DNA from: a virus
Taxonomy: Duplodnaviria; Heunggongvirae; Uroviricota; Caudoviricetes
DNA: 5,657 nt
IMG/VR virus record: IMGVR_UViG_2651869696_000005
Coordinates: 1-5,657 of that record
Reading direction: 5' to 3' (one strand)
The notes below the pieces were generated by a model that saw nothing but the letters and a program-made list of their open reading frames with translations, was not told the DNA's origin and ran no database searches. This document shows, one piece after another, positions 1-5,657 of this stretch (the first letter of the stretch is position 1; the number at the start of each line of letters is the position of its first letter). The position numbers and the translations under genes are program-made.

Positions 1-1912
1 TGCAGAGGCTTTCGGAAAACTGACCACCGACTCTACGTCGGGGCTGATTGCGATGGCGCGCCAGTTCCGTAACGTGACGGCAGAGCAGATTGCGTATGTT
101 GCGCAGCTGCAGCGTTCCGGTGATGAGGCCGGGGCCTTACAGGCGGCGAACGATATCGCCACGAAAGGCTTTGATGAGCAGACCCGTCGCCTGAAAGAAA
201 ACATGGGGACACTGGAGACCTGGGCGGATAAAACCGGGAAGGCATTCAAATCGATGTGGGATGCCATTCTGGATATCGGTCGTCCTGAGTCCTCAGCGGA
301 TATGCTCGCCAGTGCGCAGAAGGCATTTGATGAGGCGGATAAAAAATGGCAGTGGTACCAGAGCCGGAGCCAGCGCCGCGGTAAAACCTCTTCTTTCCGG
401 GCCAACCTTCAGGGCGCATGGAATGACCGGGAAAATGCCCGGCTGGGGCTGGCAGCGGCCACGCTGCAGTCGGATATGGAAAAAGCCGGTGAACTGGCCG
501 CCAGGGACCGGGCCGAACGGGACGCATCACAGCTGAAGTATACCGGAGAGGCGCAGAAGGCGTATGAGCGTCTGCTGACGCCGCTGGAGAAATATACCGC
601 CCGTCAGGAAGAACTGAATAAGGCCCTGAAAGACGGGAAAATCCTGCAGGCGGATTACAACACGCTGATGGCGGCGGCGAAAAAGGATTATGAATCGACG
701 CTGAAAAAGCCGAAGTCGTCAGGAGTCAAAGTGTCAGCCGGTGAGCGTCAGGAAGACCAGGCGCATGCTGCCCTGCTGGCGCTTGAAACCGAGCTCCGGA
801 CGCTGGAAAAACACAGCGGTGCGAATGAGAAAATCAGCCAGCAGCGTCGCGATTTATGGAAAGCGGAAAATCAGTATGCGGTCCTGAAAGAGGCAGCCAC
901 GAAACGGCAGTTATCTGAGCAGGAAAAATCCCTGCTGACCCATGAGAAAGAGACGCTGGAGTACAAACGCCAGCTGGCTGAGCTGGGAGACAAAGTTGAA
1001 CACCAGAAACGGCTGAATGAGCTGGCACAGCAGGCTGCGCGGTTTGAGCAGCAGCAGGGCGCGAAGCAGGCGGCAATCAGTGCCCAGGCGCGGGGCCTCA
1101 CCGACCGTCAGGCGCAGCGGGAGTCGGAAGAGCAGCGCCTTCGTGACGTGTACGGTGATAATCCGGATGCGCTGGCGAAGGCCACATCTGCACTGAAGAA
1201 CACCTGGTCTGCGGAGGAGCAGCTTCGTGGAAGCTGGATGGCCGGTCTGAAGTCCGGCTGGGGCGAGTGGGCAGAAAGTGCGACGGACAGTTTTTCGCAG
1301 GTTAAAAGCGTGGCCACGCAGACCTTTGACGGTATTGCACAGAATATGGCAGCGATGCTGACCGGCAGTGAGCAGAACTGGCGCAGCTTCACCCGTTCCG
1401 TGCTGTCCATGATGACAGAAATTCTGCTTAAGCAGGCAATGGTGGGGATTGTCGGGAGTATCGGCAGCGCCATTGGCGGGGCTGTTGGTGGCGGCGCATC
1501 CGCATCAGGCGGTACAGCCATTCAGGCCGCTGCGGCGAAATTCCATTTTGCAACCGGAGGATTTACGGGAACCGGCGGCAAATATGAGCCAGCGGGGATT
1601 GTTCACCGTGGTGAGTTTGTCTTCACGAAGGAGGCAACCAGCCGGATTGGCGTGGGGAATCTTTACCGGCTGATGCGCGGCTATGCCACCGGCGGTTATG
1701 TCGGTACACCGGGCAGCATGGCGGACAGCCGGTCGCAGGCGTCCGGGACGTTTGAGCAGAATAACCATGTGGTGATTAACAACGACGGCACGAACGGGCA
1801 GATAGGGCCACAGGCGCTGAAGGCTGTTTATGACGTAGCCCGTAAGGCGGCAATGGATGTTGTGACCGGGCAGATGCGTGATGGTGGTCTGTTCTCCGGA
1901 GGTGGACGATGA
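1..1912 (+). CDS. H: Tail tape measure protein (lambda gpH-like), 5'-truncated by window edge; roughly the C-terminal 637 codons
   Basis: The frame is open from nt 2 to the TGA at 1910-1912, so the Met at 53 in the ORF track is internal. The translation is long, charged and helical (K/E/Q/R/A-rich, coiled-coil-like), followed by a Gly-rich hydrophobic stretch (MVGIVGSIGSAIGGAVGGGASASGG, about nt 1439-1513) and the C-terminus ...MRDGGLFSGGGR. This matches my recollection of lambda gpH. The stop overlaps the M start (ATGA). Confidence 0.9.
   Translation, partial: AEAFGKLTTDSTSGLIAMARQFRNVTAEQIAYVAQLQRSGDEAGALQAANDIATKGFDEQTRRLKENMGTLETWADKTGKAFKSMWDAILDIGRPESSADMLASAQKAFDEADKKWQWYQSRSQRRGKTSSFRANLQGAWNDRENARLGLAAATLQSDMEKAGELAARDRAERDASQLKYTGEAQKAYERLLTPLEKYTARQEELNKALKDGKILQADYNTLMAAAKKDYESTLKKPKSSGVKVSAGERQEDQAHAALLALETELRTLEKHSGANEKISQQRRDLWKAENQYAVLKEAATKRQLSEQEKSLLTHEKETLEYKRQLAELGDKVEHQKRLNELAQQAARFEQQQGAKQAAISAQARGLTDRQAQRESEEQRLRDVYGDNPDALAKATSALKNTWSAEEQLRGSWMAGLKSGWGEWAESATDSFSQVKSVATQTFDGIAQNMAAMLTGSEQNWRSFTRSVLSMMTEILLKQAMVGIVGSIGSAIGGAVGGGASASGGTAIQAAAAKFHFATGGFTGTGGKYEPAGIVHRGEFVFTKEATSRIGVGNLYRLMRGYATGGYVGTPGSMADSRSQASGTFEQNNHVVINNDGTNGQIGPQALKAVYDVARKAAMDVVTGQMRDGGLFSGGGR
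1898..1902 (+). promoter_or_regulatory. Shine-Dalgarno for M (GGAGG), inside the 3' end of H
   Basis: GGAGG lies 6 nt upstream of the M ATG at 1909. Confidence 0.6.
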
Positions 1913-2238
1913 AAACCTTCCGCTGGAAAGTGAAACCCGGGATGGATGTGACATCGGCTCCTTCCGTCAGGGAGGTGCGCTTTGGTGATGGCTATTCCCA
2001 GCGTGCGCCTGCCGGGCTGAATGCTGACCTGAAAACGTACAGCGTGACGCTTTCTGTCTCCCGTGAGGAGGCCACGGCGCTGGAGTCGTTTCTGGCAGAG
2101 CACGGGGGCTGGAAAGCCTTTCTGTGGACGCCGCCTTATGGCTGGCGGCAGATAAAGGTGACCTGCGCAAAATGGTCGTCGCGGGTCAGTATGTTGCGTG
2201 TTGAGTTCAGCGCAGAGTTTAAACAGGTGGTGAACTGA
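1909..2238 (+). CDS. M: Tail tip assembly protein M (lambda gpM-like), 109 aa
   Basis: ORF of 109 codons whose ATG (1909-1911) overlaps the H stop as ATGA. A strong Shine-Dalgarno GGAGG sits at 1898-1902, 6 nt upstream. The translation MKTFRWKVKPGMDVT... and the 109-aa length match lambda gpM as I recall it, and the gene sits between H and L as expected. Confidence 0.9.
   Translation: MKTFRWKVKPGMDVTSAPSVREVRFGDGYSQRAPAGLNADLKTYSVTLSVSREEATALESFLAEHGGWKAFLWTPPYGWRQIKVTCAKWSSRVSMLRVEFSAEFKQVVN
2225..2230 (+). promoter_or_regulatory. Shine-Dalgarno-like AGGTGG for L, inside the 3' end of M
   Basis: AGGTGG lies 7 nt upstream of the L ATG at 2238. Confidence 0.5.
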
Positions 2239-2936
2239 TGCAGGATATCCGGCAGGAAACACTGAATGAATGCACCCGTGCGGAGCAGTCGGCCAGCGTG
2301 GTGCTCTGGGAAATCGACCTGACAGAGGTCGGTGGAGAACGTTATTTTTTCTGTAATGAGCAGAACGAAAAAGGTGAGCCGGTCACCTGGCAGGGGCGAC
2401 AGTATCAGGCATACCCCATTCAGGGGAGCGGTTTTGAACTGAATGGCAAAGGCACCAGTACGCGGCCCACGCTGGCAGTCTCTAACCTGTACGGCATGGT
2501 CACCGGTATGGTGGAAGATATGCAGAGTCTGGTCGGCGGAACGGTAGTCCGGCGTAAGGTTTACGCCCGTTTTCTGGATGCGGTGAACTTCGTCAGCGGA
2601 AACAGCAACGCCGATCCGGAGCAGGAGGTGATCAGCCGCTGGCGCATCGAGCAGTGCAGCGAACTGAGCGCAGTCAGTGCCTCTTTTGTACTGGCCACGC
2701 CGACGGAAACGGATGGCGCTGTTTTTCCGGGACGTACCATGCTGGCCAACACCTGCACCTGGACCTATCGCGGTGATGAGTGCGGTTATAACGGTCCGGC
2801 TGTCGCGGATGAATATGACCAGCCAACGTCCGATATAACGAAGGATAAATGCAGCAAATGCCTGAGCGGCTGTAAGTTCCGCAATAACGTCGGCAACTTT
2901 GGCGGCTTCCTTTCCATTAACAAACTTTCGCAGTAA
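2238..2936 (+). CDS. L: Tail tip protein L (lambda gpL-like), 232 aa, with C-terminal cysteine cluster
   Basis: ORF of 232 codons whose ATG (2238-2240) overlaps the M stop by 1 nt (TGATG). An SD-like AGGTGG sits at 2225-2230. The translation MQDIRQETLNECTRAEQSASVVLWEIDL... and the 232-aa length match lambda gpL as I recall it. The C-terminus carries clustered cysteines (CTWTYRGDEC ... KCSKCLSGC). Confidence 0.9.
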   Translation: MQDIRQETLNECTRAEQSASVVLWEIDLTEVGGERYFFCNEQNEKGEPVTWQGRQYQAYPIQGSGFELNGKGTSTRPTLAVSNLYGMVTGMVEDMQSLVGGTVVRRKVYARFLDAVNFVSGNSNADPEQEVISRWRIEQCSELSAVSASFVLATPTETDGAVFPGRTMLANTCTWTYRGDECGYNGPAVADEYDQPTSDITKDKCSKCLSGCKFRNNVGNFGGFLSINKLSQ

Positions 2937-2941
2937 ATCCC

Positions 2942-3685
2942 ATGACAGAGACAGAATCAGCGATTCTGGCGCACGCCCGGCGATGTGCGCCAGCGGAGTC
3001 GTGCGGCTTCGTGGTGAGAACGCCGGAGGGGGAAAGCTATTTTCCCTGCGTGAATATTTCCGGTGAGCCGGAGGATTATTTCCGGATGGCTCCGGAGGAC
3101 TGGCTGCAGGCAGAAATGCAGGGTGAGATTGTGGCGCTGGTCCACAGCCACCCCAGTGGTCTGCCCTGGCTGAGTGAGGCTGACCGGCGGCTGCAGGTGC
3201 AGAGTGATTTGCCGTGGTGGCTGGTCTGCCGGGGGGCGATTCACAAGTTCCGCTGTGTGCCGCATCTCACCGGGCGGCGCTTTGAGCACGGGGTGACGGA
3301 CTGTTACACGCTGTTCCGGGACGCTTACCATCTGGCGGGGACTGAACTGCCGGATTTTCACCGGGAGGATGACTGGTGGCGTCACGGTCAGAATCTCTAT
3401 CTTGACAATATGGAGGCGACGGGTTTTTACCGTGTCGCACTGACAGAGGCGCAGCCGGGCGATGTGCTGCTGTGCTGTTTTGGTTCATCGGTGCCGAATC
3501 ACGCCGCAATTTACTGCGGCGACGGCGAGCTGCTGCACCATATTCCTGAACAACTGAGCAAACGAGAGAGGTACACCGACAAATGGCAGCGACGCACACA
3601 CTCCCTCTGGCGTCACCGGGCATGGCACGCATCTGCCTTTACGGGGATTTACAACGATTTGGCCGCCGCATCGACCTTCGTGTAA
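2942..3685 (+). CDS. K: Tail tip assembly protein K (lambda gpK-like): N-terminal JAB/MPN-type metallopeptidase motif plus C-terminal NlpC/P60-type Cys/His domain. Longest ORF 247 aa; the classical lambda annotation corresponds to the internal ATG at 3086 (199 aa)
   Basis: ORF 2942-3685 begins 5 nt after the L stop. The in-frame internal ATG at 3086 has a GGAGGA (3070-3075) 10 nt upstream and corresponds to the classical 199-aa gpK start (MAPEDWLQ...). A JAMM-like H-S-H-x7-S-x2-D motif is encoded at 3143-3184. An NlpC/P60-like catalytic Cys sits in DCYTLF (Cys codon 3302-3304) and a His in NHAAIY (3500-3502). The 3' end overlaps gene I by 103 nt, as in lambda. Confidence 0.85.
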   Translation: MTETESAILAHARRCAPAESCGFVVRTPEGESYFPCVNISGEPEDYFRMAPEDWLQAEMQGEIVALVHSHPSGLPWLSEADRRLQVQSDLPWWLVCRGAIHKFRCVPHLTGRRFEHGVTDCYTLFRDAYHLAGTELPDFHREDDWWRHGQNLYLDNMEATGFYRVALTEAQPGDVLLCCFGSSVPNHAAIYCGDGELLHHIPEQLSKRERYTDKWQRRTHSLWRHRAWHASAFTGIYNDLAAASTFV

Positions 3686-4161
3686 AAACGGGGGCCGAAG
3701 CCATCCGCGCACTGGCCACACAGATCCCGGCGTTTCGTCAGAAACTGAACGACGGCTGGTATCAGGTACGCATTGCCGGGCGTGATGCAGGCGAAACCGA
3801 ATTATCAGCCCGTCTTAATGAGCCGCTGGCAAATGGTGCAGTGATCCACATCGTGCCGCGTCTGGCGGGAGCAAAAAGTGGCGGTGTGTTTCAGGCAGTG
3901 CTGGGTGCGGCGCTGATTGCTACGGCAATCTGGATGCCGGGAATCAGTATCGCTTTCAGTGACATTCTCTTTTCAATGGGGGCAGCGATGACGCTTGGCG
4001 GTGTTGCACAGATGCTGGCACCGAAACCCAAAACCCCAACAACGACCAGACAACGGATAACGGCAAACAGAACACCTATTTCTCATCACTGGATAACATG
4101 GTTGCCCAGGGCAATATTCTGCCTGTTCTGTACGGTGAAATGCGCGTGGGGTCACGCGTAA
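3583..4161 (+). CDS. I: Tail assembly protein I (lambda gpI-like), frame-disrupted: the N-terminal ubiquitin-like domain and hydrophobic segment are intact in this frame, but the last ~40 codons are out-of-frame read-through
   Basis: The ATG at 3583 lies inside the 3' end of K in another frame. The translation MAATHTLPLASPGMARICLYGDLQRFGRRIDLRVKTGAEAIRALATQIPAFRQKL... matches lambda gpI as I recall it, including the GG (3880-3885) that ends the ubiquitin-like domain. After ...GGVAQMLAPKPKTP (about 4038) this frame stops resembling gpI and runs into a stop at 4159-4161. Confidence 0.75.
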   Translation: MAATHTLPLASPGMARICLYGDLQRFGRRIDLRVKTGAEAIRALATQIPAFRQKLNDGWYQVRIAGRDAGETELSARLNEPLANGAVIHIVPRLAGAKSGGVFQAVLGAALIATAIWMPGISIAFSDILFSMGAAMTLGGVAQMLAPKPKTPTTTRQRITANRTPISHHWITWLPRAIFCLFCTVKCAWGHA

Positions 4162-4226
4162 TTTCGCAGGAAATCAGCACGGCAGACGAAGGGGATGGTG
4201 GTCAAATCGTGGTGATTGGTCGCTGA
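3963..4226 (+). pseudogene. I: Displaced C-terminal coding segment of gene I, in a different frame (frame 3) from the I start
   Basis: Frame 3 is open from 3963 to the TGA at 4224-4226. From 4047 it encodes QTTDNGKQNTYFSSLDNMVAQGNILPVLYGEMRVGSRVISQEISTADEGDGGQIVVIGR, which matches the C-terminus of lambda gpI as I recall it. The join between the N-terminal frame and this one needs a net 1-nt length change within about 4039-4046. Confidence 0.6.
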
Positions 4227-4244
4227 TGCAAAATGTTTTATGTG

Positions 4245-4272
4245 AAACCGCCTCCGGGCGGTTTTGTCGTTT
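4245..4272 (+). terminator. Hairpin plus T-tract in the I-J intergenic gap (terminator-like; may act as a partial terminator or RNA-stability/processing element)
   Basis: A perfect 8-bp inverted repeat, AAACCGCC (4245-4252) and GGCGGTTT (4257-4264), flanks a 4-nt loop TCCG. It is followed by TGTCGTTT, so the region 4261-4272 is T-rich. It lies between the I stop (4226) and the J SD (4275-4278). Confidence 0.3.
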
Positions 4273-4274
4273 AT

Positions 4275-4278
4275 GGAG
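4275..4278 (+). promoter_or_regulatory. Shine-Dalgarno GGAG for J
   Basis: GGAG lies 8 nt upstream of the J ATG at 4287. A second purine-rich GAGGA sits at 4282-4286, immediately next to the ATG. Confidence 0.55.
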
Positions 4279-4286
4279 CGTGAGGA

Positions 4287-5657
4287 ATGGGTAAAGGCAG
4301 CAGTAAGGGGCATACCCCGCGCGAAGCGAAGGACAACCTCAAATCCACGCAGCTGCTGAGTGTGATCGATGCCATCAGCGAAGGGCCGATAGAAGGTCCG
4401 GTGGATGGATTAAAAAGCGTGCTGCTGAACAGTACGCCGGTGCTGGACAGTGAAGAGAATACCAACATCTCCGGCGTCACGGTGGTGTTCCGGGCAGGTG
4501 AGCAGGAGCAGACACCGCCGGAGGGATTTGAATCCTCCGGCTCCGAGACGGTGCTGGGTACGGAAGTGAAATACGACACGCCGATCACCCGCACCATCAC
4601 GTCGGCAAACATCGACCGTCTGCGCCTGACCTTCGGTGTGCAGGCACTGGTGGAAACCACCTCAAAGGGGGACAGGAATCCGTCGGAAGTCCGCCTGCTG
4701 GTTCAGATACAGCGTAACGGTGGCTGGGTGACGGAAAAAGACATCACCATTAAGGGTAAAACCACCTCGCAGTATCTGGCCTCGGTGGTGGTGGATAACC
4801 TGCCGCCGCGCCCGTTTAATATCCGGATGCGCAGGATGACGCCGGACAGCACCACAGACCAGCTGCAGAACAAAACGCTCTGGTCGTCATACACCGAAAT
4901 CATCGATGTGAAACAGTGCTACCCGAACACGGCACTGGTCGGCGTGCAGGTGGACTCGGAGCAGTTCGGCAGCCAGCAGGTGAGCCGTAATTATCATCTG
5001 CGCGGGCGTATTCTGCAGGTGCCGTCGAACTATAACCCGCAGACGCGGCAATACAGCGGTATCTGGGACGGAACGTTTAAGCCAGCATACAGCAACAACA
5101 TGGCCTGGTGTCTGTGGGATATGCTGACCCATCCGCGCTACGGCATGGGGAAACGTCTTGGTGCGGCGGATGTGGACAAATGGGCGCTGTATGTCATCGG
5201 CCAGCATTGCGATCAGTCGGTGCCGGACGGTTTTGGCGGCACGGAGCCGCGCATCACCTGTAATGCGTACCTGACCACACAGCGTAAGGCGTGGGATGTG
5301 CTCAGTGATTTCTGCTCTGCGATGCGCTGTATGCCGGTATGGAACGGGCAGACGCTGACGTTCGTGCAGGACCGGCCATCGGATAAGGTGTGGACCTATA
5401 ACCGCAGTAATGTGGTGATGCCGGATGATGGCGCGCCGTTCCGCTACAGCTTCAGCGCCCTGAAAGACCGCCATAATGCCGTTGAGGTGAACTGGACTGA
5501 CCCGGATAACGGCTGGGAGACGGCGACAGAGCTTGTTGAAGATACGCAGGCCATTCTCCGTTACGGTCGTAACGTCACGAAGATGGATGCCTTTGGCTGT
5601 ACCAGCCGGGGGCAGGCGCACCGCGCCGGGCTGTGGCTGATTAAAACAGAACTGCTG
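4287..5657 (+). CDS. J: Tail tip attachment protein / central tail fibre J (lambda gpJ-like), N-terminal 457 codons; 3'-truncated by window edge
   Basis: ATG at 4287-4289 with GGAG at 4275-4278 (8-nt spacer). The frame is open with no stop to the last base of the window (1371 nt = 457 codons). The translation MGKGSSKGHTPREAKDNLKSTQLLSVIDAISEGPIEGPVDGLKSVLLNSTPVLD... matches the gpJ N-terminus as I recall it. It is not in the supplied ORF track because it has no stop in the window. Confidence 0.92.
   Translation, partial: MGKGSSKGHTPREAKDNLKSTQLLSVIDAISEGPIEGPVDGLKSVLLNSTPVLDSEENTNISGVTVVFRAGEQEQTPPEGFESSGSETVLGTEVKYDTPITRTITSANIDRLRLTFGVQALVETTSKGDRNPSEVRLLVQIQRNGGWVTEKDITIKGKTTSQYLASVVVDNLPPRPFNIRMRRMTPDSTTDQLQNKTLWSSYTEIIDVKQCYPNTALVGVQVDSEQFGSQQVSRNYHLRGRILQVPSNYNPQTRQYSGIWDGTFKPAYSNNMAWCLWDMLTHPRYGMGKRLGAADVDKWALYVIGQHCDQSVPDGFGGTEPRITCNAYLTTQRKAWDVLSDFCSAMRCMPVWNGQTLTFVQDRPSDKVWTYNRSNVVMPDDGAPFRYSFSALKDRHNAVEVNWTDPDNGWETATELVEDTQAILRYGRNVTKMDAFGCTSRGQAHRAGLWLIKTELL

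Follow-up and report, generated by a model that had tools for sequence, protein, structure and literature searches.

Start site and domain content of the tail protein K of a lambdoid phage, and a base missing from the reference sequence of lambda

The tail protein gpK of phage lambda is commonly described as a protein of 199 residues, and in a 2020 review, where it is treated as 'gpK, 199 residues', a peptidase domain only is seen (PMC7291167). In a lambdoid relative, the reading frame of gene K is open for 48 codons upstream of the position at which lambda K is conventionally started, which raises the question of where the protein begins and which domains it contains. We examined this locus in a stretch of 5,657 nt of viral DNA (positions 1 to 5,657 of IMG/VR record IMGVR_UViG_2651869696_000005), called the window below. 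Inspection of its ORFs and Pfam matches identified it as the tail-tip segment of a lambdoid late operon, with genes in the order H-M-L-K-I-J. The features on which the argument draws are the following:

53-1912, plus strand: gene H (ORF list, Pfam)
1909-2238, plus strand: gene M (ORF list, Pfam)
2238-2936, plus strand: gene L, minor tail protein L, 232 residues (Pfam Phage_tail_L, E=5e-100)
2934-2936, plus strand: stop codon TAA of L, 5 nt before the K start
2937-2941, plus strand: L-K spacer ATCCC (sequence)
2942-3685, plus strand: full-length ORF of gene K, 247 residues and stop, JAB/MPN+ domain followed by NlpC/P60 domain (ORF, Pfam; the same 744-nt CDS, 5 nt past L, is called by PGAP in E. 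coli genomes)
2942-3085, plus strand: 48-codon N-terminal extension of K, with helix alpha1 (residues 3-15), strands 20-27 and 30-36 and the JAMM catalytic Glu (Pfam, 2kks alignment, AlphaFold2, conservation, dN/dS)
2996-2998, plus strand: GAG codon of E19, predicted general acid-base Glu of JAMM, equivalent of AfJAMM E22 (conservation among homologues; role per PMC300881)
3070-3075, plus strand: GGAGGA resembling a Shine-Dalgarno (SD) sequence, within K codons 43-45 (Pro-Glu-Asp); one of three CCGGAGG in about 80 nt, in the predicted hairpin 3057-3074
3086-3088, plus strand: internal ATG (M49), where lambda K starts in the textbooks (alignment to lambda; Met not kept beyond close relatives)
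3143-3184, plus strand: H68-S69-H70-x7-S78-x2-D81, zinc-binding part of the JAMM motif (motif, conservation)
3272-3613, plus strand: NlpC/P60 (C40 peptidase) domain, residues 111-224 (Pfam, Foldseek, conservation)
3302-3304, 3500-3502 and 3536-3538, plus strand: candidate catalytic residues C121, H187 and H199 (conservation)
3583-3685, plus strand: start of gene I (ATG 3583, other frame) over the last 34 codons of K (ORFs, dS drop, Pfam)
From 3583, plus strand: gene I (ORF, Pfam)
Past the window end: gene J (gene order)

The whole is very probably best explained by a 247-residue K that starts at ATG 2942 and carries full JAMM and NlpC/P60 domains, the short form being due to a gap in the reference sequence of lambda. 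K would be translated from this ATG in a manner coupled to L by termination-reinitiation. Its residues 1-105 would constitute a complete JAB/MPN+ (JAMM) metalloprotease domain. The first 48 residues would account for the N-terminal helix of this domain, for a beta hairpin and for Glu19, a catalytic residue that acts together with S78 and with H68, H70 and D81, which bind zinc. A cysteine peptidase domain of the NlpC/P60 type (C121/H187/H199) would follow at residues 111-224. The 199-residue lambda protein would then be no separate biological form but the product of a G missing from the 1982 reference. The data presented below directly support three elements of this reading: that the extension is coding and conserved, that it completes the domain, and that the reference sequence is discrepant.

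Reading frame and coding status of the extension

The K frame is open back to ATG 2942, 5 nt past the L stop; the coordinates and the 247-residue peptide proved to be exactly those of the original prediction, as did the positions of the Glu codon and of the H-S-H-x7-S-x2-D motif. The ATG at 3086 aligns with the annotated start of lambda K at nt 14276, showing that it is indeed the classical start. ATG 2942 is the earliest ATG, GTG or TTG downstream of an in-frame stop and the sole start upstream of the conserved block. The DNA of the window is about 90-92% identical to that of lambdoid phages, with K annotated in the matched region, and the protein matches phrog_30 of the PHROGs collection at E=1e-161. 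It is thus identified as a lambda-type tail tip assembly protein K (TAPK) by its location between L and I/J and its orthology to lambda K. Genes are tightly packed in this part of the operon: H and M overlap by 4 nt (ATGA), M and L by 1 nt (TAATG), and 5 nt separate L from K. No Rfam family was found in the window, no promoter-like site in 2700-3300 and no unusual RNA structure where L meets K (z=+0.99). An ORF on the minus strand (2957-3385) had no Pfam match and was put down to chance, the coding DNA here being rich in G+C.

An open stretch of 48 codons is by itself unremarkable in G+C-rich DNA. We assembled a set of 111 full-length K genes, drawn from both viral and genomic contigs and comprising 94 distinct DNA sequences, and calculated dN/dS by the Nei-Gojobori method, using 45 gap-free codons for the extension. 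Over the 94 sequences the extension contains no stop in the K frame, against 187 and 100 stops in the other two frames, and the dN/dS of codons 2-48 is 0.30-0.33 in frame versus about 1.5 in the other frames. The value of 0.33 is higher than that of the rest of the JAB domain (0.16) and of the NlpC/P60 domain (0.12). By these measures the extension is somewhat less constrained than the rest of K, yet it is clearly coding. The original prediction had called for such a comparison of synonymous and nonsynonymous changes, and its outcome places the upstream codons under in-frame purifying selection, unlike non-coding sequence. The 48 residues alone also match the Pfam Prok-JAB profile (positions 3-52, E=2.9e-5). 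This match, the lack of in-frame stops and the frame-specific dN/dS set the extension apart from a chance ORF.

Conservation extends well beyond the lambdoid phages used for this calculation. Lengths of 242-249 residues predominate among enterobacterial K homologues, and I8, L9, A12, P17, E19, S20, C21, G22, Y33, P35, N38 and F47 are invariant in 33/33 closer homologues. An exhaustive HMMER search over 1.8 billion representatives yielded 2,787 relatives, in which the full-length proteins at 33-59% identity have N-termini of their own that align, within a few residues, to query residues ~3-10. In 62 distant homologues, G22 and N38 are kept in all 62 and F47 in 61. The same holds for the zinc-binding part of the motif (H68, H70 and D81 in 62/62 each, S78 in 59/62) and for the candidate residues of the second domain (C121 and H187 in 61/62 each, H199 in 62/62).

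These data bear on the reading in which K is produced solely as the 199-residue protein, and the 144 nt before it are either spacer that is not translated or a small ORF of their own. Such a view agrees with the annotation of NC_001416, DE3 and lambda imm21, and a 76-residue PHROGs family (phrog_7305) that matches the fragment would speak for the separate ORF. However, neither frame-specific purifying selection with no stops in 94 sequences, nor the retention of the catalytic Glu, N38, G22 and F47 across homologues at 33-59% identity, nor the dependence of Pfam and fold recognition on the extension is expected under it. A gap of 148 nt would be unique in this tightly packed operon, and the separate 76-residue ORF occurs only where a 1-nt gap exists. 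We consider this reading hardly tenable.

At the other end of the gene, K codons 214-247 (3583-3685) show a K-frame dS of 0.04 versus 0.13-0.27 elsewhere, with a dN/dS of 0.94. This collapse of dS, as estimated from the aligned sequences, is the signature of dual coding and supports an upstream start of gene I, at ATG 3583 or at Met14; the Pfam Lambda_tail_I domain starts at residue 14 of I. Shorter I annotations, which begin at the K stop in PV340536, KT232076 and mEp460 and 33 nt upstream of it in one PGAP call, would cut into the ubiquitin-like domain.

Gene I of the window (3583-4226) is frameshifted near 4050-4062. ORF 3583-4161 departs from the I frame at ACGACCAGACAACGG, where 2 extra nt are present compared with E. 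coli OkiPb01675, and the conserved C-terminus of I (MVAQGN...VVIGR) is found in a separate ORF, 4098-4226. The 27-mer at the shift occurs in none of 131 related loci compared. A recombination junction, an error in sequencing or decay into a pseudogene could each account for the frameshift.

Completion of the JAB/MPN domain

According to the original prediction, the upstream codons probably complete a JAB/MPN fold, with a segment resembling the first beta-strand, which carries a conserved Glu; if the JAMM motif is functional, the 199-residue form would probably lack part of the fold. The 247-residue K matches Pfam Prok-JAB (PF14464) over residues 4-98, covering profile positions 4-103 of 114 with 51.7 bits (E=9e-14), well above the curated cut-off of 25 bits. 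The 199-residue form matches profile positions 63-103 only and scores 21.6 bits, under the cut-off. By this profile, the MPN core does not lie entirely after residue 49. The solved MPN protein 2kks aligns with K residues 7-105, LAHAR..P.E.CG included. The NCBIfam model of the haloarchaeal desampylase (NF041370), a JAMM enzyme whose targets are the ubiquitin-like SAMPs, is matched by the long form only, with a score of 29.6 bits that is far under the 130-bit equivalog cut-off.

Structure prediction gave the same picture. The AlphaFold2 model of 247-residue K has a mean pLDDT of 85 and a pTM of 0.72; residues 1-40 reach a pLDDT of 91-96, and a helix (3-15) and two strands (20-27 and 30-36) are formed within the extension. 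When this model was submitted to Foldseek, PfJAMM1 ranked 2-3 (5ld9, TM 0.65, rmsd 2.7 A), and Rpn11, CSN5 and AMSH were also retrieved with a probability of 1.00, beside NlpC/P60 enzymes. As modelled, the 247-residue protein thus has the alpha/beta fold of MPN domains. In the AlphaFold2 model of the 199-residue form, built with the same homologues, the JAB remnant falls to a pLDDT of 66-79, and the best 50 matches of this model in the PDB consist of NlpC/P60 proteins throughout. Profile coverage and the AlphaFold2/Foldseek results need the extension, part of which the 2kks alignment also includes, in agreement with the prediction.

The JAMM motif, E-x(n)-H-S/T-H-x7-S-x2-D, is complete in K, with E19, H68, S69, H70, S78 and D81. 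E19, which is kept in 33/33 close and 61/62 distant homologues, is indeed the conserved JAMM Glu that the upstream segment had been suspected to encode. In JAMM enzymes this residue holds the catalytic water and serves as general acid-base, and the E56A substitution abolishes the activity of Csn5 (PMC300881). Because the motif is spaced almost as in AfJAMM and the Glu plays this role, the 199-residue K would be deprived of a third of the fold and of a catalytic residue. The C-terminal part of K scores 48.6 bits against Pfam PF00877 (cut-off 23) over residues 111-224 and contains the conserved Cys-His-His set (C121/H187/H199), which identifies it as an NlpC/P60 domain.

Start codon and the missing base in reference lambda

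The L stop and the K ATG are 4-5 nt apart, with no SD sequence, in almost every one of the 94 lambdoid sequences, and more distant relatives have TGATG overlaps or an SD of their own at the L/K junction. Because of the 5-nt gap and the lack of a Shine-Dalgarno sequence, K most likely starts at 2942 by termination-reinitiation coupled to L.

The ATG at 3086 has the appearance of an independent start: 10 nt separate it from GGAGGA (3070-3075), and ATG and upstream GGAGG are kept together in 91/94 close lambdoid relatives. A predicted hairpin, 3057-3074 (TTTCCGG-TGAG-CCGGAGG), encloses this SD-like GGAGG. Gene callers that weigh ribosome-binding sites choose the internal start, as seen in four clusters of exactly 199 residues with 1,684-4,936 members each, and several gene callers and expert annotators still pick ATG 3086. 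In-frame dual starts are known in lambda, where S105 and S107 are made. K might likewise exist as two in-frame isoforms, 247 residues from 2942 and 199 residues from ATG 3086 via GGAGGA, the shorter one keeping NlpC/P60 but having no working JAMM site. Against this, M49 is retained as Met in 14/33 closer and 11/62 distant homologues, and is replaced by Ile, Leu or Val in 19/33 and 51/62, respectively. The GGAGG is lost in diverged relatives, for example ACCGACCC. It is a by-product of Pro-Glu codons, CCGGAGG occurring three times within some 80 nt, and is enclosed in the predicted hairpin; coding constraint accounts for the conservation of ATG and GGAGG in close relatives. Finally, the 199-residue product would be left with half an MPN domain and a low-confidence model. 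We therefore regard two isoforms as unlikely, and a single 247-residue K as the preferred reading.

The origin of the short lambda protein was found in the reference sequence itself. In NC_001416/J02459, the segment upstream of K is a 76-codon ORF in a frame different from that of K. Alignment showed that reference lambda lacks one G after nt 14266 (14266-14267), reading GGAGGC-TATTT instead of GGAGGCGTATTT, at a position equivalent to ~3075-3077 of the window. The prediction that the K frame is open to the L stop thus holds for the window and for resequenced lambda, but not for reference lambda, where the 1-nt gap shifts the frame. K of lambda was annotated with 199 residues because the missing G puts its first 48 codons out of frame and the annotators took the next ATG with an SD-like sequence.

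We read the sequences of lambda imm21, PV340536, DE3 and KT232076 directly: all contain the additional G, and the K that they encode is in every case the same uninterrupted protein of 247 residues. LC730321 is 48,503 bp long, one base above 48,502. In this and the other lambda or lambda-hybrid records matched, a 331-nt query covers 332 nt, consistent with the same extra base. The reference allele was absent among the matches listed from 5,426 complete E. coli genomes, the best of which are 99.7% identical with one extra base.

Lambda K was also encountered on low-coverage contigs, several of them ~48.4 kb, in ~12 unrelated assemblies (Pseudomonas, Shewanella, Neobacillus, Bradyrhizobium, Chromatium and others). 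These contigs most likely represent contamination by lambda control DNA. The 12 lambda contaminant contigs in unrelated bacterial assemblies carry the same extra G and the identical 247-residue K.

The reference allele is found in four records, J02459, NC_001416, OR974322 and OR474059. This could mean that the deletion was real in the 1982 stock, like the stf frameshift of lambda PaPa, in which case the JAB domain would be dispensable in the laboratory; laboratory strains of lambda do carry the stf frameshift (PMC10721106). However, neither OR974322 nor OR474059 is clearly independent. The former, from a cloacal-swab study, has reference-identical coordinates and was set aside as reference-derived, and the latter was set aside as the unverified record of an engineered strain. 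Every independently assembled lambda copy that we read has the G, and the other lambda records show a span one base longer, in keeping with it. A real deletion is thus very improbable. As judged from these records, the 199-residue gpK is an artefact of a single base absent from the lambda sequence of 1982 and not a matter of start-codon choice. We found no statement of a lambda K frameshift or of its correction in the literature searched; Feiss et al. 2022 gives '9 differences', unlisted, and studies of MutaMouse lambda, of the lambda mutation rate, of the lambda interactome and by CRISPRi contained nothing on K.

Annotation has not followed the sequence in all cases. K is annotated with 199 residues in DE3 and in lambda imm21 (Feiss et al. 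2022), with 211 in KT232076, with 233 in mEp332, and with 247 in mEp460, PV340536 and the PGAP E. coli genomes. The 233-residue K of mEp332 (PV340541) results from a 1-nt gap of its own at ~1290, in a G5 run (CCGGA-GGGG) of the K extension, which is probably a homopolymer sequencing error.

For the window, no change of annotation follows, since current pipelines already call the long ORF. The point is one of curation: NC_001416 and J02459 keep a truncated K without the catalytic glutamate, the cause being one missing base. UniProt P03729 likewise gives the truncated lambda K. Any gpK expressed, modelled or mutated from the reference sequence has half an MPN domain.

Comparison with known systems

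The 247-residue form and its JAB/NlpC/P60 architecture are already known. Lambda K appeared among proteins with a JAMM motif in 2003/2004 (PMC300881), and in 2006 TAPK was described as combining JAB and NlpC/P60 domains and as associated with the ubiquitin-like TAPI (PMC1779556). The long form is routine database annotation, the PGAP name of the 247-residue protein being 'C40 family peptidase'. The K of the window is the orthologue of lambda K, with 93% identity to resequenced lambda K over 247 residues, and shares with it the H-M-L-K-I-J order and the succession of JAB and NlpC/P60 domains. In the reference entry of lambda, the 1-nt gap of J02459 costs K 48 residues, whereas the window, resequenced lambda and PGAP all have 247 residues.

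The C-terminal domain of K matches the folds of the NlpC/P60 peptidases MepS/Spr of E. coli (8xup, 2k1g) and LytE/CwlO of B. subtilis. In contrast to MepS, LytE and CwlO, no signal peptide or cell-wall-binding module was noted in K. Lambda gpK is needed for tail assembly and is absent from virions (PMC10721106, PMC12617516). Peptidoglycan is an uncertain substrate of K because gpK is not found in virions (PMC10721106), and for the same reason structures of the virion give no indication of its size.

The catalytic activity of K is putative. The leading candidate for its substrate is the ubiquitin-like domain at the N-terminus of gpI, cleaved after its Gly-Gly, as in the proposal of Iyer et al. 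2006 that the JAB domain frees this Ub-like domain at the glycine that ends it (PMC1779556). In lambda the domain is closed by G100-G101 (our own count on the lambda sequence), and the I protein of the window has AKSGG at ~3868-3882. Cryo-EM of tails resolved gpI from residue 101 onward only (PMC11101478), that is directly after G100-G101, which fits the 2006 cleavage model without proving it. Tentatively, the complete JAMM site might make 247-residue K an active deubiquitinase-like peptidase that, as the tail tip is assembled, cuts gpI behind the Gly-Gly (lambda G100-G101) and so takes off its Ub-like N-terminal domain. If so, work with the 199-residue lambda gpK would have missed the cleavage of gpI, the catalytic Glu being absent. 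With the corrected K, the proposed ubiquitin-like/JAMM processing of a tail-tip component during assembly can be put to a proper test.

The closest parallels to this predicted site are the stand-alone JAMM isopeptidases. E19/H68/H70/S78/D81 of K correspond, with nearly equal spacing, to E22/H67/H69/S77/D80 of AfJAMM (PMC300881). AfJAMM, Pyrococcus furiosus JAMM1 (5ld9/5lda) and the Haloferax desampylase (NF041370) are ~22-24% identical to K. Unlike these enzymes, K is fused to an NlpC/P60 domain, and its activity is predicted. The stand-alone JAMM isopeptidases act on ubiquitin-like proteins, and in the window it is gene I, lying over the end of K, that encodes a ubiquitin-like domain.
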